From Patescibacteria group bacterium (GTDB lineage Bacteria > Patescibacteriota > Minisyncoccia > Minisyncoccales > UBA5738), in NCBI GenBank assembly GCA_022710775.1, contig JAKLGH010000001.1, positions 5,824 through 69,823 on the forward strand: a DNA stretch of 64,000 nucleotides. The letters are read 5' to 3'. Numbering within the stretch: position 1 is the first letter of the stretch; the number at the start of each line of letters is the position of its first letter. A model generated the notes under the pieces. That model worked only from the letters and a program-made list of their open reading frames with translations. It ran no database searches and was not told the DNA's origin. Of this stretch, positions 12,042 to 40,970 are shown piece by piece. The position numbers and the translations under genes were made by a program.

Positions 12042-13013
12042 CTAGAGAAGCGAGTCTTTCTCGGAACGATTAGCCAGTTTTTTGAAAAACTTTTTGCTGG
12101 CTAGCGCGATAAGCGCCAACACCATCAAAAAGCCCACGGTAAAGGAAACAGTATGCGTGTTTATCGACTTAATCACGGCAGCTAAAACAACGTCTTTTTC
12201 AGAAATGATTGTAAAAGGAATGACCGCCTTTCCTACAACGGAGTCTTTCGCTAAAACTTCTATCGAGGCCACATAGGTGCCAACTTTTCCATCCATGGAC
12301 CGCCATTGAATAGGGTCAAGAGCGATAGTTGTGCCGGGATGAATAGCTTCCTTGGCGTCGGGAAAGGGATAGATAACATCAAAAACAGGATTACCGTCAG
12401 AAACAATGTTGAAGTGAACATTAGGCTTAATACTAACATTGCTTTCATTGCGAACATTAATATTAACGGTAAAATTCTCGGACGACGAGTATGTGTATTT
12501 TGAAGGAATGATCGAAACTGAAGCTGCAATATTTTCCTGATCAGTCACAGTGATTGTTACTGCGCGGCTGATTATTTGCCCAACGCTGACATTAACAGCG
12601 TCCTTATTGCTAGAATCAAGGGATTGGGGCACGGATTTAATATTAATAAACCCGGTATAAGTTCCATTGGGAATATCAGCTGGAATCTTAAAAATGGCAA
12701 CGGCTTGCATTCGACCATTGGCAGCCAAGGTAAATTCGCTAGTTAACGGAGTGCTTTTATCAGCCGTGGTATAAAAAGAGGTAAATTCGGCTGTTTTGCC
12801 GCCGGCAGACACGAGAAATTGCTCCTTGATATTATCAGAGTTGACAAAATATAAATCAACAGCCACCTCTTCGCCGCGCATCGCATTGTCAATCACGATG
12901 GGCGCGGTAATTTGCCCGACCGCAAAAACCGGCGAATTAACAATTAGCAAAGAAAATAATACAGATAAAAACACAGAAACCGTCAAGCATTTAGAAAGTT
13001 TAAATATTTTCAT
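12042..13013 (-). CDS. Cell-surface protein with a signal peptide, two Ig/CARDB-like beta domains and a C-terminal TM anchor
   Basis: 323 aa with a signal peptide ending VFA-VGQ, the C-terminal [19 protein letters not shown] and a basic tail. It starts 25 nt after the next gene on the minus strand ends. Confidence 0.65.
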
Positions 13014-13104
13014 ATTTTTAGGAAGTTCAGTGTTATGCTAAACTTTCTCGGTTTTTTTGTCAAGGGCTATTATTATATGAAATAGCCAGGGAAATCGCGT
13101 AGTA

Positions 13105-13135
13105 ACAAAAAAAGGCGCATACGCGCCCTTTTTTG
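13105..13135 (-). terminator. Rho-independent (bidirectional-looking) terminator
   Basis: AAAAAAAGGCGCatacGCGCCCTTTTTTG, 25 nt downstream of the stop at 13160. Confidence 0.7.
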
Positions 13136-13159
13136 CAAATTGGCTTGCACTAAATACTT

Positions 13160-14341
13160 TTATGTTCCGCAAGTCAAATGAGGAGCCTGGGTACCTTTCA
13201 ACCACATTGTGCCGGTGTAAGGGCCAGTGCCTTCAAACTTATCAACCAAGACGCCAAAATCGATTTCGTCATCAGTTGACAAATCGATGGTCTTGTCAAG
13301 CAAATGATAATCGCAATCAACAGGATCGCCAGCGACGCCGTATTTCTTGAACGGGTCGTAAGGAGCGTAAACACCATCGGTATTAATCTTGGCCTTGTAA
13401 TGGACATTCCAAGATGTGGAAGTAGGCGTCAAATCACGATCGCCCATTTGCATATCGTCCTGGGCAACATTGATTGCCAAGCGAGTGTTGCCGACATTCC
13501 TGATCGTCGGTCTACCGTCACCAAGCACGAAATCTTCATTGCCGGGAGCAACCACCCAATTATTCAAGGTAACCGCACCGTAAGCAACGTTGGAAAAATC
13601 GGTCTGGAACGCAGTTCCGGGATTGTAGGTGAAATAATTCACTAACGCATCGCTGGTAGCATTGGTTTTGCTCTGCGCCCAAACGTCAACCTTATATTCG
13701 CCGGAAGGATCTTCGTAGGAAAGATTCTTGTCGCAGCAATATACATACGCAACATCCTTTTTGATCCAACCATCGTTGGAACAAATTGTATCAAAGGTTT
13801 CGCCGTTCGCAAACGTGGGAAGCGTGCCGGTATTTTGGTTGCGAACTTTGTTGCAGAATAAATCCAAAGATGCATTTTTGTTCGCAAGGTGGTCATCGCC
13901 AGCAATCTTTATCATTGTGCACTCCGAACCAACCCTAGTGCTGCAACCCTGGCGGTCAGCGGGATGGTTAGGTCCAAGGGCAATATCAGGATAATAAACA
14001 TCACCATAAACGGCGTTGATATCAGTTAAGGACTGATCGTAAATCACGCCGCAGATGGAAATAACTTTGTTAACATTATGTTGCATTGACGGATCAAATT
14101 GAGCGTTTGCAATAGCCGGATAATCATCCTTGGCAAGCCCGGAAGTACCTAAAGCAGCCGACCACGGACCGTTCATTTCCCATTTGGCTTTCACGATGGG
14201 CGCAACGCCGCCGGTGCCTTTGGTCAAGCCGGTGCCAACCGTGCCAGAACCGATAACTACGGTTTGAGCTGTAGCAATAGCCGGACCAGCGGTCATAACG
14301 GCCAAAGCTACGAGCAAACAGATAGAAATAACTTTCTTCAT
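13160..14341 (-). CDS. Secreted Cys-containing protein, paralog A (unknown family)
   Basis: I place the start at the internal MKKVISICLLVALAVMTAGPAIATAQ (ATG = complement of 14339-14341), because that gives a canonical signal peptide. It shares many blocks with 15356..16642. Confidence 0.75.
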   Translation of the reverse strand: MKKVISICLLVALAVMTAGPAIATAQTVVIGSGTVGTGLTKGTGGVAPIVKAKWEMNGPWSAALGTSGLAKDDYPAIANAQFDPSMQHNVNKVISICGVIYDQSLTDINAVYGDVYYPDIALGPNHPADRQGCSTRVGSECTMIKIAGDDHLANKNASLDLFCNKVRNQNTGTLPTFANGETFDTICSNDGWIKKDVAYVYCCDKNLSYEDPSGEYKVDVWAQSKTNATSDALVNYFTYNPGTAFQTDFSNVAYGAVTLNNWVVAPGNEDFVLGDGRPTIRNVGNTRLAINVAQDDMQMGDRDLTPTSTSWNVHYKAKINTDGVYAPYDPFKKYGVAGDPVDCDYHLLDKTIDLSTDDEIDFGVLVDKFEGTGPYTGTMWLKGTQAPHLTCGT

Positions 14342-14502
14342 ATTTTTTTCGTTTTTTTCGGATTTTAGGAGAATCCGCAACCTTTTTATTTCTACCCGCC
14401 CGATCTTTTGCACTCTAATGATTTGTCGATAATCTGATAAGACATCAGCCGCGACAGCATACAGTGCAAAATCCCGGACGGGTCCCGGTCGACCACCTCC
14501 CG

Positions 14503-14558
14503 CAATCATTAATCATTGATCCTTAACCGTTAATCCTTGATCATTAATCATTAACAGC
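14503..14558 (+). repeat. Heptanucleotide array, TAAYC/TGATC type (8 units)
   Basis: caatcat taatcat tgatcct taaccgt taatcct tgatcat taatcat taacagc. Confidence 0.8.
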
Positions 14559-14694
14559 AAGGGATTGAATTTTGATTGGCGGGCCTTCTTTATTAAATTT
14601 CGGCGGCATGGCTTCGACGGCCTGTTTCGACGGCTTTCAATAAAGTGCGGGTCGCGGCTTTCCTCCCGGGAAACGCGATCCAAACTTTATTGGG

Positions 14695-14874
14695 TGAACA
14701 TTGAACGATGAACCTTGAACTTTGAACGATGAACATTGACGATGAACATTGACGATGAACCTTGAACTTTGAACTTTGAACCTTGAACGATGAACCTTGA
14801 ACTTTGAACTTTGAACGATGAACATTGAACTTTGAACATTGAACGATGAACATTGAACGATGAACATTGAACTT
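14695..14874 (+). repeat. Heptanucleotide tandem array TGAACNN (26 units)
   Basis: tgaacat tgaacga tgaacct tgaactt ... The variable dinucleotide is only AT, GA, CT or TT, and two units are 6-mers (tgacga). The array ends 3 nt from the stop codon of the four-helix-bundle gene. Confidence 0.95.
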
Positions 14875-14877
14875 TTA

Positions 14878-15249
14878 TTATTGTTTTGCTAAGAAATTTG
14901 TAAAACCTTTTAATCGTTTCGCGAGACTGGCAGCGGCTTCCAGAACTTTACCTTGATGGGCCTTGCTGATCAAATTTTCGTCGAGCGCGCAATCCAGGCC
15001 GGCGACTACCTCGTCTAATGAGCAATGAGCCCGGTTGATATAAACGCGGCGTTCTTTATCGGTGCTTTTATTGGCGCTTTCGGCGATATTAAGTATTATC
15101 GAGAGCGATGCCCTTCTAAGCTGATCGGTTAACCCAAACCTTTCTTCTTTTGGGAACAAATTCGCGGTTTCATAAATTATGGACCTGAATTTTAACGCAT
15201 CTTTATAAATATCCCAATTCCTGAATTTAAATCCAAGATCATCAATCAT
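14878..15249 (-). CDS. Four-helix-bundle protein (23S rRNA intervening-sequence protein / Avd-like family, TIGR02436-type)
   Basis: 123 aa. The sequence [80 protein letters not shown] fits the family pattern ([27 protein letters not shown]...). Confidence 0.8.
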   Translation of the reverse strand: [123 protein letters not shown]

Positions 15250-15250
15250 A

Positions 15251-15358
15251 GTTCAAGGTTTATTTTTTTGTTCATCAGCCATAGTTCATAGTTTAATGTT
15301 TATTGTTGTCTGTTCATCAGCCATAGTTCATAGTTTAATGTTCATTGTTTATTGTTCA
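15251..15358 (-). repeat. Inverted-orientation heptad region (TGAAC cores on the minus strand) containing a 31-bp direct repeat
   Basis: GTTCA (plus strand) occurs at 15251, 15270, 15284, 15312, 15326, 15340 and 15354. From 15270 onward the spacings are 14 or 28 nt; 15251 is 19 nt from the next core and out of phase. GTTCATCAGCCATAGTTCATAGTTTAATGTT occurs twice (15270-15300 and 15312-15342; period 42 = 6 heptads). Confidence 0.8.
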
Positions 15359-16642
15359 CTCATTGGAGCATTGGTAATGATCGGTTCCGGTGGCGCTTAG
15401 CGTAAGCGTACCGCTGTATTCGCTGGTCAGGGCGTCGGGGTACTTAAAGACCGTTACGCCCAGCTCCACCGCTTCGCTGGTCGAAAGATCGATCTCTCCG
15501 GGCAAGGCGGCTGACTCATTTGGCCAATAATACGTCCAGGGATTGTTACCCACGGCGTAGCGCGCGTGATAACGGATATTATAGCGGCCATCGGTTTTGC
15601 CCAGACCCATATCGTTTTGCTCGATCGAAACCCGGACGCGGGTATTGCCAAGGTTGCGGATATAAGCGGCGCCCAAGGTTTGCTTGCCGTCTTTACCATA
15701 ATATTGCGCCGTTTTATCCAGATTGGCCGCAACCGTACCGTAATTTACGCTGTTAAAATCAGCCTGGACCGCGGTAATGGGCAGGTATTCGACATTGCTT
15801 AACAGCAGGTTGGAAAAGATCCCGGCGCTGTTCTGGGCAATGACGGAAGCGCGGTAAATGCCGGAAATATCATCGTAAGCCAGGGATTGGCCGCAGCAAT
15901 ACACAGCAGCTGTTTGCTTTTCCAATTCGGCGCAAACCGCGTCGTAATTATAGCGTTCGCCTTCGGTTCCGGTGTCGCCAAAAACCGGCAAACTGGCATT
16001 ATCGTTTTTAATCTTTTGGCAAAATAATTCCAAGCCATTTGAAGCTTCCAAGGGTTTCATTTGGCAGATCGGCGAAACGGCCTGGCCGCAGCCTTGGCGC
16101 TTTTTTGCGTCGTTGGGGGCGAAAGCCGAGTTGCCGGGATATGAAAACTGGCTGTAAACTCCGAAGCTGTCATTTGGACCGGCACCGGGCCGCACCGCGC
16201 CGCAGATCTGAAAATCCGCGGAAACATCCAAGGCTCCGCTGGGCAAAAACTGGGCCAAAGGATCGGCTGAAGCGTCGGTTCCGTTATTCAGCATGGCCCA
16301 AGCCGCCATTACCGTGGGATTTGGGTTTAAAATGTCCGCTTCGCCGCTCGGGGCGGCGCCAGAAGGCGCGCCGTTGGATGAGCCGGCAGGTTCTAGGGCT
16401 GGCTGGGTTTCCCCTGCCGGGGTTATACCCGGATCGCTGACCGGATCGGTAGACTGGATTTTGCCGGTTTCCTCGGTTGAAGCGGCTGTGCCGTCATCGG
16501 TGGTGGTGGCTTCCTCAATAGAATCAGCCACCGGATCGGTGGAAGTGGCATTTTCTTCCTGGTTTTCCGCAACTAAAACCACCGGGCCAAGAATTCCCGC
16601 TAACAAAACCGCCGCCAGTAATAACGCGATAGGTCTTTGCAT
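15356..16642 (-). CDS. Secreted Cys-containing protein, paralog B (same family as 13160..14341)
   Basis: 428 aa with the signal peptide MQRPIALLLAAVLLAGILGPVVLVA and an S/T/E/P-rich linker containing QEENATST. Shared blocks include IRNLGNTRVRVSIEQNDMGLG / IRNVGNTRLAINVAQDDMQMG, VYCCGQSLAYDDISGIY / VYCCDKNLSYEDPSGEY and IDLSTSEAVELGV / IDLSTDDEIDFGV. Confidence 0.8.
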   Translation of the reverse strand: MQRPIALLLAAVLLAGILGPVVLVAENQEENATSTDPVADSIEEATTTDDGTAASTEETGKIQSTDPVSDPGITPAGETQPALEPAGSSNGAPSGAAPSGEADILNPNPTVMAAWAMLNNGTDASADPLAQFLPSGALDVSADFQICGAVRPGAGPNDSFGVYSQFSYPGNSAFAPNDAKKRQGCGQAVSPICQMKPLEASNGLELFCQKIKNDNASLPVFGDTGTEGERYNYDAVCAELEKQTAAVYCCGQSLAYDDISGIYRASVIAQNSAGIFSNLLLSNVEYLPITAVQADFNSVNYGTVAANLDKTAQYYGKDGKQTLGAAYIRNLGNTRVRVSIEQNDMGLGKTDGRYNIRYHARYAVGNNPWTYYWPNESAALPGEIDLSTSEAVELGVTVFKYPDALTSEYSGTLTLSATGTDHYQCSNE

Positions 16643-16766
16643 TTGGTTTTACGATTCCTTACAAAACCGCTGTGCGCCGCGCGTTCTTAACGCCGCGCTT
16701 ATCGCCATCAGACCCGCTATGAGAAGGCTTGCAATATAGGAAGCCTTTTCGCAAAGGGCCGAAGAA

Positions 16767-16976
16767 TGAACTTTGAACGATGAACGTTGAACGTTAACTA
16801 ATGAACCTTGAACGTTGAACTTTGAACGATGAACGTTGAACGTTAACTAATGAACCTTGAACGATGAACCTTGAACGTTGAACGTTGAACTTTGAACGTT
16901 AACTAATGAACCTTGAACGTTGAACTTTGAACGATGAACCTTGAACGTTGAACTTTGAACGTTAACATTTGGACTT
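16767..16976 (+). repeat. Heptanucleotide tandem array TGAACNN (30 units) with TAACTAA punctuation and a 49-bp super-repeat
   Basis: Units are tgaac + tt/ga/gt/ct. TAACTAA falls at units 5, 12 and 20, and TAACATT at unit 29. Units 1-7 are nearly identical to units 8-14. Confidence 0.95.
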
Positions 16977-17220
16977 TTTAAAAAAATGGAGTCCAAGTCC
17001 AACTTCCCCAATGTGAAAGACGGATTTGCACTCCATTATAATTTGACGCTTGATGGCAGAATAGTTCGTATTCAATTTCACGCGTCCATTTGCCCTCTCC
17101 GCAAATGGATTTTAATCATTTAAAACCCTGACTGTATTCTGATAGTATACGTTTCCCGAGCCGTGTCAAGCTTTTGACTGAAAAATTCTAGCAGTAAAGC
17201 GGACGCGCGGTCAATAGAGG

Positions 17221-17240
17221 TTATCCACAGGTTATCAACA
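17221..17240. promoter_or_regulatory. Two tandem DnaA-box-like 9-mers
   Basis: TTATCCACA (perfect consensus, 17221-17229), then GG, then TTATCAACA (one mismatch, 17232-17240). Confidence 0.4.
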
Positions 17241-17244
17241 GTGA

Positions 17245-17253
17245 ATTATAACA
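17245..17253 (-). promoter_or_regulatory. Candidate extended -10 promoter element (TGTTATAAT) reading toward the heptad array and paralog B
   Basis: The minus strand reads TGTTATAAT, followed 4 nt later by the two DnaA-box-like sites. The palindrome TGTCAAtTTGACA at 17271-17283 lies upstream. Confidence 0.35.
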
Positions 17254-17295
17254 ATGACAGTAGGCCATTTTGTCAATTTGACATGGGACAAAATT

Positions 17296-17425
17296 TAATC
17301 GCTAATCGTTAACTTTTAATCCTTAATCATTGATTGTTAACCTTTAACCATTGATTGTTAACATTTAATCATTGATCCTTGATCGTTAACCTTTAACCAT
17401 TGATGATTAACAATTAATCCTTTAA
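17296..17425 (+). repeat. Heptanucleotide array, TAAYC/TGATY type (about 18 units)
   Basis: taatcgt taacttt taatcct taatcat tgattgt taacctt taaccat tgattgt taacatt taatcat tgatcct tgatcgt taacctt taaccat tgatgat taacaat taatcct. Confidence 0.9.
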
Positions 17426-17563
17426 CGACGAGTGCGGGTATTTGGCGAGGATTGGCCTCAAAAAGACCGGAGGCCTAACCTCTCAAATTCCCAATACCGA
17501 ATTCATACTTTCCCAATATTCAACAACCCCGGCCTGAAGGCCGGGGCTTGCGACCCGGTTAAG

Positions 17564-18187
17564 TCAAGGAAAAGCGATTTTTTTTACCTGGTTTTTTAGA
17601 AAATCTTTAATTTCCTCGAAATCAATTTGGCCGCCGCTCTTAAAATTTATCGGCTCCATTACCAGATCATCAAAAAAAACCAGGCTTTTTAAAACCAGAT
17701 TTTCATCCAGCCCGGGAAGTTTTTTTGATAACGCGGACAAAATATCCTTAAGGGGCGTCATTTTCAAAATGTAATACAGGTCAATATAATCTTTGTTGGT
17801 TCCCCGGCCGGTAATGGCCGATAGCTTCATACAGGCAATATCTTCAATCGAAGCTATATTTAGATAAGGCTCGCTGATCAAGCTATTAACCAATTCATAC
17901 GGATAAAAGAAAAAGCTTAATTTAAGGCTATCATCGATAAAAACAGTAAGCGTTCCGGCTTCTTCCTGGGCTTTGATAATTTTATGGCCGGCAAATGCTT
18001 TCGCGGTTTGCTCGAAAACCGCCGAAGTATTAATTTCGGTTTGGGAAAAAAAATCAAAGTCAACGCTATCGCGATGGCCTATCTGCAAAGCAAGGCCGGT
18101 GCCGCCGGCCAGGTAGAATTGATCCTTGAATACATTTAAAAGCGGAAGGATGGCGCTTCTTTTTTCATCTAAAATTTCGTAATGCAT
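17564..18187 (-). CDS. Nucleotidyltransferase AbiEii/AbiGii-type toxin family protein
   Basis: 207 aa. The N-terminal pattern FYLAGGTGLALQIGHRDSVDFDFFS matches the family signature as I recall it (LAGGTALAL..GHR.S.DLDFF). Confidence 0.7.
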   Translation of the reverse strand: MHYEILDEKRSAILPLLNVFKDQFYLAGGTGLALQIGHRDSVDFDFFSQTEINTSAVFEQTAKAFAGHKIIKAQEEAGTLTVFIDDSLKLSFFFYPYELVNSLISEPYLNIASIEDIACMKLSAITGRGTNKDYIDLYYILKMTPLKDILSALSKKLPGLDENLVLKSLVFFDDLVMEPINFKSGGQIDFEEIKDFLKNQVKKIAFP

Positions 18188-18193
18188 AAGCGA

Positions 18194-18475
18194 TTATTTA
18201 GCGAGCCGCCTTTTAGAAATTTCCTGTTTATTTATTTCGAGCAAAAAACTCCAATAATTCAATGATTTCGGGCTTAATTCGCCGGAGCCATGCCGGATAA
18301 TGGTTTTTGTTATTACATCGCGCGGATAATATCGCAACAGCCAATCGGAAGCCAGCCGATCGCCCAGGTTTAAAACGTTAAGGATTATTCTTTCCCTGTT
18401 TTCTTTAAGGTCAATTTGGGTTAGGTCGCTGGACCAAAGATATTTTGCCACGCCCGGAGGCAGGTGTTCGTTCAT
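18194..18475 (-). CDS. Small partner protein of the AbiEii-like gene (putative antitoxin-side component)
   Basis: I place the start at MNEHLPPGVAKYLWSSDL (ATG = complement of 18473-18475; 93 aa). It ends 6 nt before the AbiEii-like start. The longer ORF-track version (196 aa) overlaps the upstream gene with an R/P-rich, implausible N-terminus. Confidence 0.55.
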   Translation of the reverse strand: MNEHLPPGVAKYLWSSDLTQIDLKENRERIILNVLNLGDRLASDWLLRYYPRDVITKTIIRHGSGELSPKSLNYWSFLLEINKQEISKRRLAK

Positions 18476-18521
18476 AGGCCTATTATAGCACAATTTAGGC
18501 TTAAATTGAACCTGCCGATTC

Positions 18522-19862
18522 TTATTGGATGGGTGTTGAGGTGGCGTTTTCTTCGTTTGATTGCTGGGGGATGATGGCCGGCGGGCCGGTGATGGCTTCA
18601 ACAGCCTGGCCGGGGTTGCCGCTTCCGGGCGCGGCAAACGGCACAATCTCGATGGCCCGGCCCGGATCGAGCAGCACGCTATCCCCTGTTGTCTCCGTGC
18701 TGGTGGCGTTGCGGATAATATCAATAGCCTCAACGATATCTTGCGGAGGCATCGGCGCAATATCCGAGGGCGGCAGGGCGGCATCGGATATTGCTTGCGG
18801 AGCGGCAGAGGCGCGGCCGGAGTTTGAGGCTTCCTCTTCGGCCGCGATTTGGTTCATTAAGTCTTCCATTGACATCATGGGCGGGCAAAAATCACGCTCG
18901 CTGACCGCTTCGCCGACAAACGCCGCGTTGTTCCTTCCATAAGCAACCACTTTGATCCGGGCCGTATGCGTAACATAAGCGGTATCGTAGGGAAGCATCC
19001 ACAGATACGAGCCGGTATTGGGCAAGGGGGCCGGATTGATCTTAGGCAGCCAGTGGCGGCCGCTGTCGTTTGAATAATAAATATCGATGAGCAAATCGCT
19101 GTCCGGACCATAGGGATTATGGGCCGTCCAGCGGATATTGTACTGGCAGTTAGCATTCATCGCATCGGGCTTACGTTCAGTGCACCATTTGCTGCAAGCC
19201 TGATCGCGAGGGCACTGTGGCGCCACCACATACCAATGCTGTCCGCCATCGGGATAAATGACATCGACATCGGGCGTATTGCGGACTACCCGGATGTGGC
19301 TAGGAAGGTTTTCGATATGACTAAAGCCTGTTCCGTATAGCTGGCGCGCCCGGAAAATAATATCGAAATAGCAATCGGAATCGTATATCACGCTGGCCAT
19401 ATTATCCACCCGAGCCGAGAATGACCATTCCGCGGTCGAGGAGGCGTATTCCCCGGCATCATAGGCAAAATCAACCAACGGACCGCTATAAACTACCGAA
19501 TTTCCAAGCGAGGCATCAAGCAACAAGTTATCACAGACATCAAGCGTAGTTGTGGCCGCCTGGATTCCGACATCATACTGAAAATCAATAGTTCCGGCGG
19601 CAATAATGCGGATAGCGCGTTCAGATACGCCAACTTGCGCATTAATTTCCGGGAATTCGGCAGGTGAAACAAGAGAAAAGTCAATCATACCAATCCGGAA
19701 CGTATTGCTATCACTAGACCTGGTTCGGGAAAAATACGCCCAAACCGGTGCCGGAATCATAAGACTGGGAAGAACAATCAGAATAATCAAAAAACCACTG
19801 ATCAGAGACCGCAGCAATTTTCCGAATTCAAAATACCTATGATTCTTAAAAACGTTGATCAT
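18522..19862 (-). CDS. TasA/camelysin-like secreted protein with a SipW-cognate-type N-terminus, an Ig-like domain and an S/T/P-rich tail
   Basis: 446 aa. The N-terminal TM is followed by VWAYFSRTRSSDSNTFRIGMIDFSL. The Ig-like block is YNIRWTAHNPYGPDSDLLIDIYY. The tail contains N-x-T motifs (IRNATSTE, EENATST). The start overlaps the sipW stop as ATGA. Confidence 0.75.
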   Translation of the reverse strand: MINVFKNHRYFEFGKLLRSLISGFLIILIVLPSLMIPAPVWAYFSRTRSSDSNTFRIGMIDFSLVSPAEFPEINAQVGVSERAIRIIAAGTIDFQYDVGIQAATTTLDVCDNLLLDASLGNSVVYSGPLVDFAYDAGEYASSTAEWSFSARVDNMASVIYDSDCYFDIIFRARQLYGTGFSHIENLPSHIRVVRNTPDVDVIYPDGGQHWYVVAPQCPRDQACSKWCTERKPDAMNANCQYNIRWTAHNPYGPDSDLLIDIYYSNDSGRHWLPKINPAPLPNTGSYLWMLPYDTAYVTHTARIKVVAYGRNNAAFVGEAVSERDFCPPMMSMEDLMNQIAAEEEASNSGRASAAPQAISDAALPPSDIAPMPPQDIVEAIDIIRNATSTETTGDSVLLDPGRAIEIVPFAAPGSGNPGQAVEAITGPPAIIPQQSNEENATSTPIQ

Positions 19863-39815: not shown

Positions 39816-39886
39816 CGGGGACGCCAGGATTCGAACCTGGAACAAAAATTTTGGAGATTTCCATGATGCCATTTCACCACGTCCCC
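39816..39886 (-). tRNA. tRNA-Trp (anticodon CCA)
   Basis: Hand fold: acceptor GGGGACG/CGTCCCC; D arm GTGA-AATGGCA-TCAT; anticodon arm GAAAT-CTCCAAA-ATTTT; T arm CCAGG-TTCGAAT-CCTGG; discriminator G. Confidence 0.9.
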
Positions 39887-40359: not shown

Positions 40360-40431
40360 AGCCCGAGAGAGGAGTTGAACCTCCGACCTACTCCTTACCA
40401 TGGAGTTGCTCTGCCTCTGAGCTACCCGGGC
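40360..40431 (-). tRNA. tRNA-Thr (anticodon GGT)
   Basis: Hand fold: acceptor GCCCGGG/CTCGGGC; D arm GCTC-AGAGGCA-GAGC; anticodon arm ACTCC-ATGGTAA-GGAGT; T arm GGAGG-TTCAACT-CCTCT. Confidence 0.9.
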
Positions 40432-40565
40432 GCATTCACTGAATAATTTTCAATTTTAATTCAATAAATGATCAATGCGGCAATTTTCAAATAAAACGCA
40501 TGTTTGCCCGTTTTATAGAAACATTGAAAATTAATTGAAAATTGATTATTGCCAATTGACAATTA

Positions 40566-40901
40566 CGAAGCGAACTCGTGTCGGCTGGGAGGGATGGATT
40601 CGGACTTACTCACCATTCCCCTAGTGCTTAAACAAACTTCATCTTCTACTGCTCGCCCTGAGTGAGCGAAGCGATCGAAGGGTGGGCTGGGAGGGATGGA
40701 TTCGGACTTACTCACCATTCCCCTAGTGCTTAGACAAACTTCATCTTCTACTGCTCGCCCTGAGTGAGCGAAGCGATCGAAGGGTGGGCTGGGAGGGATG
40801 GATTCGGACTTACTCACCATTCCCCTAGTGCTTAGACAAACTTCATCTTCTACTGCTCGCCCTGAGTGAGCGAAGCGATCGAAGGGTGGGCTGGGAGGGA
40901 T
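40566..40901. repeat. 102-bp tandem repeat, about 3.3 copies, whose last copy is the 3' end of tRNA-Tyr
   Basis: GGCTGGGAGGGAT recurs at 40583, 40685, 40787 and 40889 (exact period 102). Copies are nearly identical, with one A/G difference. Each unit carries the tRNA segment ATCCCTCCCAGCCCACCC (minus strand). Confidence 0.95.
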
Positions 40902-40970
40902 TTGCACCCCCGAAGGCGTGAAGCCACCGCGTTTACAGCGCGGTCCATTTGGCTACTTTGGTACCAACCC
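40887..40970 (-). tRNA. tRNA-Tyr (anticodon GTA), type II with a long variable arm
   Basis: Hand fold: acceptor GGGTTGG/CCAGCCC; D arm CCA-AAGTAGCCAAA-TGG; anticodon arm CCGCG-CTGTAAA-CGCGG; 15-nt variable arm; T arm GGGGG-TGCAAAT-CCCTC; discriminator A. The T loop is unusual (G where U55 is expected). Confidence 0.75.

Follow-up and report, generated by a model that had tools for sequence, protein, structure and literature searches.

Introduction

The 23S rRNA of Coxiella burnetii carries in helix 45 a 428-nt intervening sequence (IVS), whose S23p open reading frame (ORF) belongs to the PF05635 family (PMC4990558). This IVS has a 28-bp terminal stem that is cut by RNase III, by which the IVS is removed from the precursor RNA and the ends are not joined again, and the ORF is preceded by two to three tandem GACAGAT heptamers, variable in number between strains, with the 5' cleavage site at the first repeat (PMC4990558). 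Here we describe a gene of the same family, encoding a four-helix-bundle (4HB) protein, that is located between two protein-coding genes in the genome of a Patescibacteria group bacterium and is enclosed by two long arrays of tandem heptamers. The locus is part of a stretch of 64,000 nucleotides of contig JAKLGH010000001.1 (assembly GCA_022710775.1, positions 5,824 to 69,823 of the forward strand), which we call the window and in which coordinates are counted from its first letter. One of the two arrays, at 14695-14874 (the reported array), had been pointed out in an earlier note made from the sequence alone.

Relatives of this gene have been recorded in several settings. ORFs of the 23S_rRNA_IVP type are scattered over several insertion sites in the 16S and 23S rRNA genes of bacteria of the candidate phyla radiation (CPR) (PMC11270868). 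Eighteen such genes have been noted inside cas loci, one of them between cmr2 and cmr3 (PMC3936711); this position, reported there for Pleurocapsa, is also that of the 4HB gene in a Picosynechococcus locus considered below. Heptamer repeats have been described separately, in Xanthomonas and Nostoc, with 70-75 convergent inverted pairs in each Xanthomonas genome; the study in question remarks that heptameric repeats have been little studied, and draws no link to the 4HB family (PMC4692102).

The PF05635 family is very large and has no assigned function, and heptanucleotide repeats constitute a long-noted, unexplained excess among bacterial simple repeats. The locus described here, together with a comparison of 74 genomes, links these genes with the heptamer excess: the typical 4HB gene occupies the loop of a hairpin whose arms are tandem repeats of 6-9 nt (mostly 7 nt), and lies in sense orientation inside an operon. 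ORF-bearing rRNA IVSs, strain-variable heptamers and IVS protein genes in cas loci were already known; the regularity of repeat arms across phyla may be a new generalisation. We found no general description of repeat-flanked 4HB genes in the open-access literature, and a prior description elsewhere is possible.

The reported array is one arm of an inverted pair around a 4HB gene

The reported array can be parsed into 26 back-to-back units (TGAACAT and TGAACTT seven times each, TGAACGA six times, TGAACCT four times and TGACGA twice), that is, 24 heptamers in which TGAAC is followed by AT, TT, GA or CT, and two hexamers. The parse matches exactly the description in the earlier note of an invariant TGAAC core with four dinucleotides and two TGACGA units. 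The placing of the array 3 nt from the stop codon of the 4HB gene is likewise confirmed by the coordinates, as the array ends at 14874 and the stop codon occupies 14878-14880. Tandem Repeats Finder (TRF) reports a period of 7 with 25.7 copies and a higher-order period of 28 nt. TGAAC occurs 98 times in the 64 kb, and a chance origin of the array is excluded because about half of these occurrences fall within the reported array and a second array at 16767-16963.

By TRF, there are five period-7 arrays within 3 kb (Table 1). The array had thus been correctly recognised, but four more arrays, the inverted partner of the first and the enclosure of the 4HB gene between the two had been missed. On the minus strand, the stop codon of paralog B is followed in turn by a TGAAC-type array (15358 to 15246), the 4HB gene, a GTTCA-type array (14874 to 14695), a non-coding leader, a TTRAYCN-type array and paralog A. 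The first TGA of the TGAAC-type array is the stop codon of paralog B itself (15358-15356), and at its other end this arm runs into the start codon of the 4HB gene. Since the two arrays are reverse complements of each other, the 4HB gene sits in the loop of a hairpin of about 85-110 bp. An inverted-repeat search pairs 14777-14866 with 15269-15358 over 90 nt at 73% complementarity. The minimum free energy (MFE) of the 686-nt cassette RNA is -165 kcal/mol (z = -2.65, 20 shuffles), and in the MFE structure 85 bp (81 Watson-Crick and 4 G-U) join 15359-15246 to 14814-14694, with the ORF in the loop; the centroid structure retains the arm stem. We are confident of this anatomy, in which the reported array is the 3' arm of an inverted array pair around a PF05635 gene.

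The 4HB protein scores 83.7 bits against PF05635 (cutoff 33.8) and 75.6 bits against TIGR02436 (cutoff 24), which places it in the family named '23S rRNA-intervening sequence protein / four helix bundle protein', or 'S23p'. The nearest solved structure is PDB 2gsc, XCC0516 of Xanthomonas (E 1.6e-10). The best named relative of the gene next to the array is from Candidatus (Ca.) Nealsonbacteria, and the closest relatives of the flanking genes are from Patescibacteria. The reading as a true array of phased heptamers is borne out, and the genome is CPR/Patescibacteria-like.

The identical 26-unit array is present in three independent assemblies (ENA ERZ761563, Logan SRR4244739 and JGI 3300019216) and is therefore not an assembly artefact, a question that the earlier note had raised. 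Two contigs, L001 and L002 (we number loci and contigs in this way where they need to be told apart), have unique sequence on both sides of the 26 units, and the exact 4HB protein is found on 13 contigs.

We rejected a coding reading of the array: the 7-nt period is not divisible by 3, and one strand is open in every frame, which gives rise to spurious ORFs. The ORFs of 50-86 aa called across heptamer arrays (e.g. 14593..14853) are artefacts of stop-free repeats. For annotation, this means that ORFs called across such arrays should be regarded as spurious, and the arrays account for why CPR assemblies break beside 4HB genes. If the longest ORF is taken, paralog A would begin at 14509, within the TTRAYCN array and 185 nt downstream of the reported array; the start at MKKVISICLL (~14338), about 360 nt downstream of the array, is more likely, being signal-peptide-like and conserved in a related lineage (L305). 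A consensus scan found no terminator-like sites on the minus strand between paralog B, the 4HB gene and paralog A, which is weak evidence, as promoter and terminator counts were within the shuffle range.

Table 1. Coordinates of the 4HB cassette, the period-7 arrays and the adjacent features in the window
Feature	Coordinates	Strand	Description	Evidence
Reported array	14695..14874	-	3' arm; on the gene strand 26 NNGTTCA units (24 heptamers, 2 hexamers), starting 3 nt past the 4HB stop	
4HB gene	14878..15249	-	123 aa, in hairpin loop	PF05635 E 1.3e-23, TIGR02436 E 3.1e-21
5' arm	15246..15358	-	TGAAC-type, ~16 heptads as 42-nt units x2.7	TRF, repeat search
Orphan GTTCA-type array	16767..16963	-	28 units, 49-nt higher-order period, upstream of paralog B	TRF
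TTRAYCN-type heptamer array	17308..17426	.	near-palindromic, self-folding (-30.8 kcal/mol)	TRF, inverted repeats
Short TTRAYCN-type array	14504..14554	.	7 units, between the reported array and paralog A	TRF
Conserved non-coding leader	14570..14690	-	immediately 3' of the reported array, non-repetitive, not part of the array	alignment
Paralog B	15356..16642	-	secreted protein, no Pfam match, co-directional upstream neighbour	
Paralog A	13160..14338	-	co-directional downstream neighbour, start taken at MKKVISICLL	

Repeat arms with complementary flanks accompany 4HB genes in several phyla

We collected 76 loci in which a relative of the 4HB protein is encoded, taking a single genome for each species; 74 of the loci have a clean ORF. 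Most are from Patescibacteria, and the others are from Deltaproteobacteria/Syntrophaceae/Thermodesulfobacteriota, Bacteroidetes, Poribacteria, Planctomycetota and other groups. Gene starts in these loci were set by a simple rule. Arrays were scored from TRF; an earlier period-7 detector (42-nt window, 72% threshold) missed short arms.

In the 74 loci, arrays with a period of 7 or its multiples make up 16.3% of the last 100 nt before the 4HB gene and 13.4% of the first 100 nt after it, compared with 0.63% of the sequence beyond 500 nt and 0.2% of the gene body. Period-7 arrays number 2.88 per kb where the sequence lies no more than 150 nt from a 4HB gene and 0.20 per kb at a distance, a difference of about 14-fold. 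The enrichment is also present when intergenic segments alone are compared, as arrays occur in 40 of the 105 segments that touch a 4HB gene and in 30 of the 223 others from the same loci (odds ratio 4.0, p = 1e-6). The earlier note had suggested checking the arrays for association with specific gene families, and across these species they are indeed enriched near 4HB genes. At least one side of the gene has an array in 41 of the 74 loci.

The two flanks of a given 4HB gene are also complementary to each other. The predicted duplex energy of cognate 130-nt flanks is -54.7 kcal/mol, compared with -41.6 kcal/mol for non-cognate flanks (p = 1.4e-11); for the window the values are -73.2 and -37.6 kcal/mol, respectively. 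When flanks are aligned in the manner of DNA, 33 of 71 cognate pairs are above the 95th percentile of non-cognate pairs. The unit sequence differs between loci and the complementarity of the flanks is kept. Upstream and downstream consensus units form pairs such as TGACTAT/GTCAAAA, TTAACGA/GTTAATC and AATCCTT/TTAAGGA, and cassette arms elsewhere can also have a period of 6, 8 or 9, for example TGACAA/ATTGTC with period 6 and GTTCTAGAT/TAGAACAAC with period 9. A deltaproteobacterial group has GATGAAC/GTTCATC, with the same core as the reported array. The polarity of the arms is variable, as one locus (L102) has its GTTCA-type array upstream and its GAAC-type array downstream.

The same arrangement is seen on cyanobacterial plasmids. 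The 4HB gene of a Nostoc punctiforme plasmid has (GGAGTCA)n upstream and CTCCTGACTTCTGAATTC downstream, inverted heptamers of the form GGAGTCA/TGACTCC, and the flanking units of an Aulosira plasmid 4HB gene are of the same family. On a plasmid of Picosynechococcus sp. PCC 7003 (L083, NZ_CP016476.1 126543-126899), the 4HB gene is set within a type III-B operon, with cas10/cmr2 on one side and cmr3 on the other at distances of about 35 nt, and is flanked by GGAGATA/TATCTCC inverted heptamers. The layout thus recurs in Patescibacteria, Deltaproteobacteria/Thermodesulfobacteriota, Planctomycetota and Cyanobacteria.

In 56 of 66 loci, the 4HB gene has the same direction as both of its neighbours, compared with an expectation of 52%, given that 72% of the other adjacent ORF pairs of these loci share a strand (p = 2.5e-8), and the median gaps between the 4HB gene and its neighbours are 56 and 62 nt. 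The shared direction and the short gaps indicate that the cassette is typically nested inside operons in sense orientation.

Variation between strains and lineages

A close relative of the locus is found on a Logan contig (L086, sample ERR7850085), whose 4HB protein is 99% identical to that of the window. Its upstream arm lacks exactly one 7-nt unit relative to the window, and its downstream arm, of which 38 nt are visible, has a different order of units. The one-unit difference lies in the partner arm; the reported array itself is identical in the three assemblies. In a more distant lineage (L305), paralog A is 88% and paralog B 53% identical to the window proteins, and the same spacer between B and A is present but contains only four TGAAC units, starting from the stop codon of B, with no 4HB gene, GTTCA array or TTRAYCN array. 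No target-site duplication is seen at the junction between the window and L305.

In the closed genome of Ca. Nealsonbacteria DGGOD1a (L088, CP092821.1), the corresponding position, upstream of a gene of the paralog A type, is likewise occupied by a 4HB gene. The 4HB genes are 73% identical, compared with 28% for the paralog-A-type neighbours. The upstream array of DGGOD1a is composed of TGAACGA/TGACGA and so shares the hexamer variant with the window. Downstream (L088 5372-5734) there is a 110-nt TGAAC-type array, 17 nt, and then a 237-nt GTTCA-type array of 35 units, itself made of a 54-nt higher-order unit at 96% identity; together they make up a hairpin with no ORF. Adjacent TGAAC/GTTCA pairs were found in 13 of 212 pattern matches (e.g. 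L094, L107 and L114).

Because higher-order periods of 28, 42, 49 and 54 nt occur among the arrays, these sequences point to growth by duplication of multi-unit blocks. Of the roles offered in the earlier note, that of a substrate for slippage or recombination finds support both in these periods and in the single-unit and unit-order differences from the 99%-identical strain.

In Planctomycetota, contig JAJFFH010000051.1 carries two 4HB cassettes (L077 and L078) 33 kb apart that are 84% identical over 581 nt, with the identity confined to the cassette and with CCCGAC-type hexamer arrays downstream. We considered recent transposition for another pair, L067 and L068, and rejected it, as the two loci are merely in synteny; L077 and L078 alone have the look of a pair of copies within a single genome.

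Comparison with described systems

The element in the window resembles the rRNA IVSs of Coxiella and Leptospira in several respects. A protein of the same family is encoded in the loop, and complementary termini form a long stem around the ORF, which here is a predicted fold (90-nt arms at 73%, 85 bp). The arm adjacent to the ORF consists of tandem heptamers of strain-variable number, which is a feature of the Coxiella element and not a formal criterion. The distribution is sporadic, and the element lies in sense orientation in a presumed host transcript. The differences are that the window element is situated between two protein-coding genes and not in an rRNA helix, that its arms of 113 and 178 nt are almost wholly heptamers, compared with the 28-bp stem and two to three heptamers of Coxiella, and that its ORF is intact and well conserved, whereas the Coxiella ORF appears to be decaying. 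No rRNA match, and no Rfam family for the arrays or the leader, was found in the whole window at gathering thresholds or in 13000-19000 at E <= 1. We do not file the element as an IVS, because residence in an rRNA helix defines that class; it is an IVS-type cassette in an mRNA context. The IVS concept is thereby widened from rRNA to mRNA, and the layout supplies a search rule for such cassettes and for their ORF-less derivatives.

The short tandemly repeated repetitive (STRR) sequences of heterocystous cyanobacteria, to which the earlier note had compared the array, are likewise intergenic tandem heptanucleotide arrays of variable length. The comparison is sound as far as this resemblance goes; the unit sequences and the host phylum do not match. 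The units of STRR1-3, which Mazel et al. are said to have reported in 1990, are CCCCA(A/G)T, TT(G/T)GTCA and CAACAGT. In the papers that could be searched, STRR sequences are not described as inverted pairs around a gene. The flanks of the Nostoc and Aulosira plasmid 4HB genes suggest that cassettes of this sort include some of the heptamer arrays of cyanobacteria.

The GGGAATC pairs of Xanthomonas are also intergenic heptamers in convergent inverted pairs, capable of forming stem-loops and variable in length among related species (Rehm et al. 2015, PMC4692102). They differ in being G-rich, in having been studied as formers of G-quadruplexes and in having no enclosed gene linked to them, and S23 or four-helix-bundle proteins are never mentioned in that work (PMC4692102).

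Two further classes were considered and rejected. The accessory protein Avd of diversity-generating retroelements (DGRs) is a distant homologue of the 4HB protein; the scores are far too low for membership (NF033474 26.6 bits against a cutoff of 80; PF22296 E 0.0044), there is no reverse transcriptase among the genes called within +/-10 kb and no template/variable repeat pair, and the repeats here are short tandem arrays. A phase-variable contingency locus, switched by a simple sequence repeat (SSR), does not fit an array that begins 3 nt past a stop codon and lies at least 185 nt before the next ORF, and 180 nt far exceeds a promoter spacer.

A proposed mechanism and its alternatives

We lean, with some reserve, towards seeing in the reported array the 3' arm of a hairpin cassette of IVS type that lies outside rRNA and works through an IVS-like RNA mechanism. 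By analogy with the 23S IVSs of Coxiella and Leptospira, the cassette would be transcribed by read-through from the host operon, the arms would pair in the RNA, and RNase III would cut the stem and so free the 4HB message from the polycistronic transcript. These steps make up a model that can be tested. The tandem-repeat build of the arms is most simply seen as a product of slippage and block duplication, and the capacity of the arms to pair in many registers is probably a side-effect of that build, one that tolerates insertions and deletions.

Several observations weigh against this proposal. Arrays on both sides of the gene are detected by TRF in just 15 of the 74 loci, and at the chosen threshold 33 lack any. 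Nor is the cassette the sole site of arrays, as 13% of the other intergenic segments also carry them, and in the window three further arrays are accompanied by no 4HB gene or remnant. The TGAAC arm would pair equally well with the orphan array at 16767-16965 (-69.6 kcal/mol, compared with -71.6 kcal/mol for the reported array), in which case paralog B would be enclosed. The z-score of the cassette fold is derived from 20 shuffles only. Among the 33 loci with significant arms, mismatches of the G-U type and of the A-C type are equally frequent (55 each), so there is no signature of selection on the sense transcript; the arms could just as well owe their complementarity to maintenance as DNA, or merely to a recent origin. 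The Ca. Nealsonbacteria copy is in the same position, so that the cassette of this locus may have been passed on vertically for a long time and not have moved recently. Finally, we infer RNA pairing and RNase III cleavage in this organism purely from the analogy.

The alternative that survives best, which we consider possible without expecting it, is that the arms act at the DNA level, as terminal inverted repeats or a cruciform for the insertion, excision or recombination of a mobile 4HB cassette, and that RNA pairing is incidental. The even balance of mismatch types would agree with this, as would a site that holds the gene in some related lineages and lacks it in others, the two Planctomycetota copies with identity confined to the cassette, and the scattering of 23S_rRNA_IVP ORFs over many rRNA sites and cas operons; older proposals that IVSs are transposition remnants or mobile elements are quoted in PMC4990558. 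On the other hand, the cassette encodes no recombinase or transposase, the 123-aa four-helix bundle has no known catalytic motif, and the window/L305 junction shows no target-site duplication. The common orientation of the cassette and its neighbours, with very short gaps, fits an element that depends on transcription.

It is unlikely that the arrays are functionless, that is, neutral and fast-evolving slippage microsatellites of AT-rich intergenic DNA in which the 4HB gene merely lands, for instance in the loop of a pre-existing array hairpin. Such an origin would suit the orphan arrays of the window and the array-bearing segments elsewhere in the loci, the ORF-less hairpins in which a TGAAC array is followed by a GTTCA array (L088 5372-5734; L094, L107, L114), the variation of array length and unit order among strains and lineages, and the over-representation of heptamers among bacterial SSRs (PMC4692102). 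It does not explain why arrays are enriched 4-fold next to 4HB genes even relative to other intergenic DNA, nor why the flanks of a given gene are specifically complementary, which independent slippage would not yield. Five consecutive TGAACNN units are common in metagenomes, and scans of metagenome and viral contigs for this pattern found a 4HB gene within 400 nt in 2 of 120 and 0 of 92 matches, respectively. The pattern is unspecific and says little on mixed-unit arrays: most of the 120 matches are pure single-unit microsatellites or telomere-like GGGTTCA tracts on unrelated, often GC-rich contigs and are not comparable with the array in the window.

The earlier note had also proposed that the array is a multivalent platform, either an RNA sponge with 26 GUUCA sites or a set of phased DNA sites, for a specific protein; that protein could be the 4HB pentamer, and paralog A the regulated gene. 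The strict phasing and invariant 5-nt core would be expected of a platform, and the TGAAC/GTTCA core recurs in cassettes of distant Deltaproteobacteria/Thermodesulfobacteriota (L055-L068) and of Ca. Nealsonbacteria. The Avd proteins of DGRs, which are relatives of the 4HB protein, bind nucleic acids. We nevertheless regard a platform as very improbable. Most homologous cassettes have unrelated units, such as TGACTAT, TTAACGA, AATCCTT, GGAGTCA, 6-mers and 9-mers, with periods of 6, 8 and 9 besides 7, and it is the complementarity of the flanks that is conserved and not a motif; a sequence-specific sponge and a phased DNA-binding platform are both left unsupported. In addition, two lineages (L305 and L306) keep the leader of paralog A without any array, no Rfam family is matched, and orphan-array units, when compared with cassette arms, do not resemble the arms of their own locus significantly more than those found elsewhere (p = 0.086).

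Several contigs from related samples do end inside such arrays (L003, L086 and L090-L092), but with the agreement of three assemblies, the unique flanks in L001 and L002 and the equivalent arrays at the same place in the closed Ca. Nealsonbacteria genome, the idea that the array is an artefact of assembling a repetitive region has a negligible chance of being right and is refuted for practical purposes.

The hairpin cassette that we favour may be extended to a wider and distinctly doubtful proposition, namely that PF05635 genes within inverted arms of short tandem repeats form one widespread, unrecognised class of selfish 'hairpin-loop' cassettes residing in host transcripts (operons, cas loci and rRNA), of which rRNA IVSs would be the rRNA-resident subset. 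The 4HB pentamer would then act on the periodic duplex of its own arms, and decayed or ORF-less copies would supply a sizeable share of the heptanucleotide excess, including STRR-like arrays of cyanobacteria and the orphan arrays of the window.

Neighbouring elements and other observations

The leader that lies directly 3' of the reported array is about 110 nt long (GGATCGCGTTTCCCGGGAGGAAAGCCGCGACCCGCACTTTAT...CGAAACAGGCCGTCGAAGCCATGCCGCC on the minus strand). Four lineages have kept it upstream of genes of the paralog A type, whether or not the cassette is there, although the encoded proteins are only 28-88% identical; its other copies are at L088 5746-5862, L306 5660-5775 and L305 5478-5570. 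RNAalifold predicts two hairpins with compensatory changes at columns 14/38 (CG<->GC) and 69/84 (AU<->GC), and there is no Rfam match. The leader is possibly a cis-regulatory RNA of the CPR surface-protein family to which these proteins belong.

No second 4HB gene or remnant was detected near the orphan arrays by tblastn or by a six-frame hidden Markov model search. The 345-nt spacer between these arrays (16963-17308) is conserved in L305 (3615-3950). It contains (especially at 17218-17241 and 16985-17037) two adjacent DnaA-box-like 9-mers, TTATCCACA and TTATCAACA, two sigma-70-like promoter matches on the minus strand (17214-17185 and 17169-17142) and, at its minus-strand end, a hairpin with 26-nt arms followed by T7; L307 carries TTGTGGATAACT x2.2. 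The spacer may encode a small RNA or serve as a promoter under the control of DnaA.

A palindromic element, a hairpin of the form GGTCTATCC...GGTTAGACC, is found at L305 5412-5455 and at L088 5888-5925 and 6183-6230. Because it recurs in the same intergenic regions of two lineages, it suggests a family in CPR genomes that resembles repetitive extragenic palindromic (REP) sequences or MITEs (miniature transposable elements with inverted repeats).

Elsewhere in the window, 40583-40901 contains 3.1 copies of a 102-nt unit that are 99% identical, preceded by AATTGAC x4.6 (40533-40564) and adjoining two tRNA genes (39816-39886 and 40360-40431). The minus-strand ORF called across these repeats (40563..40907) is probably spurious. 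Just upstream of the array region, at 17564-18187 and 18194-18784, there is a gene for a nucleotidyltransferase toxin of the AbiEii family (PF08843, E 5e-15), to which the gene list of L001, an identical contig, adds a DUF6922-type partner; the two genes are probably a type IV toxin-antitoxin pair.

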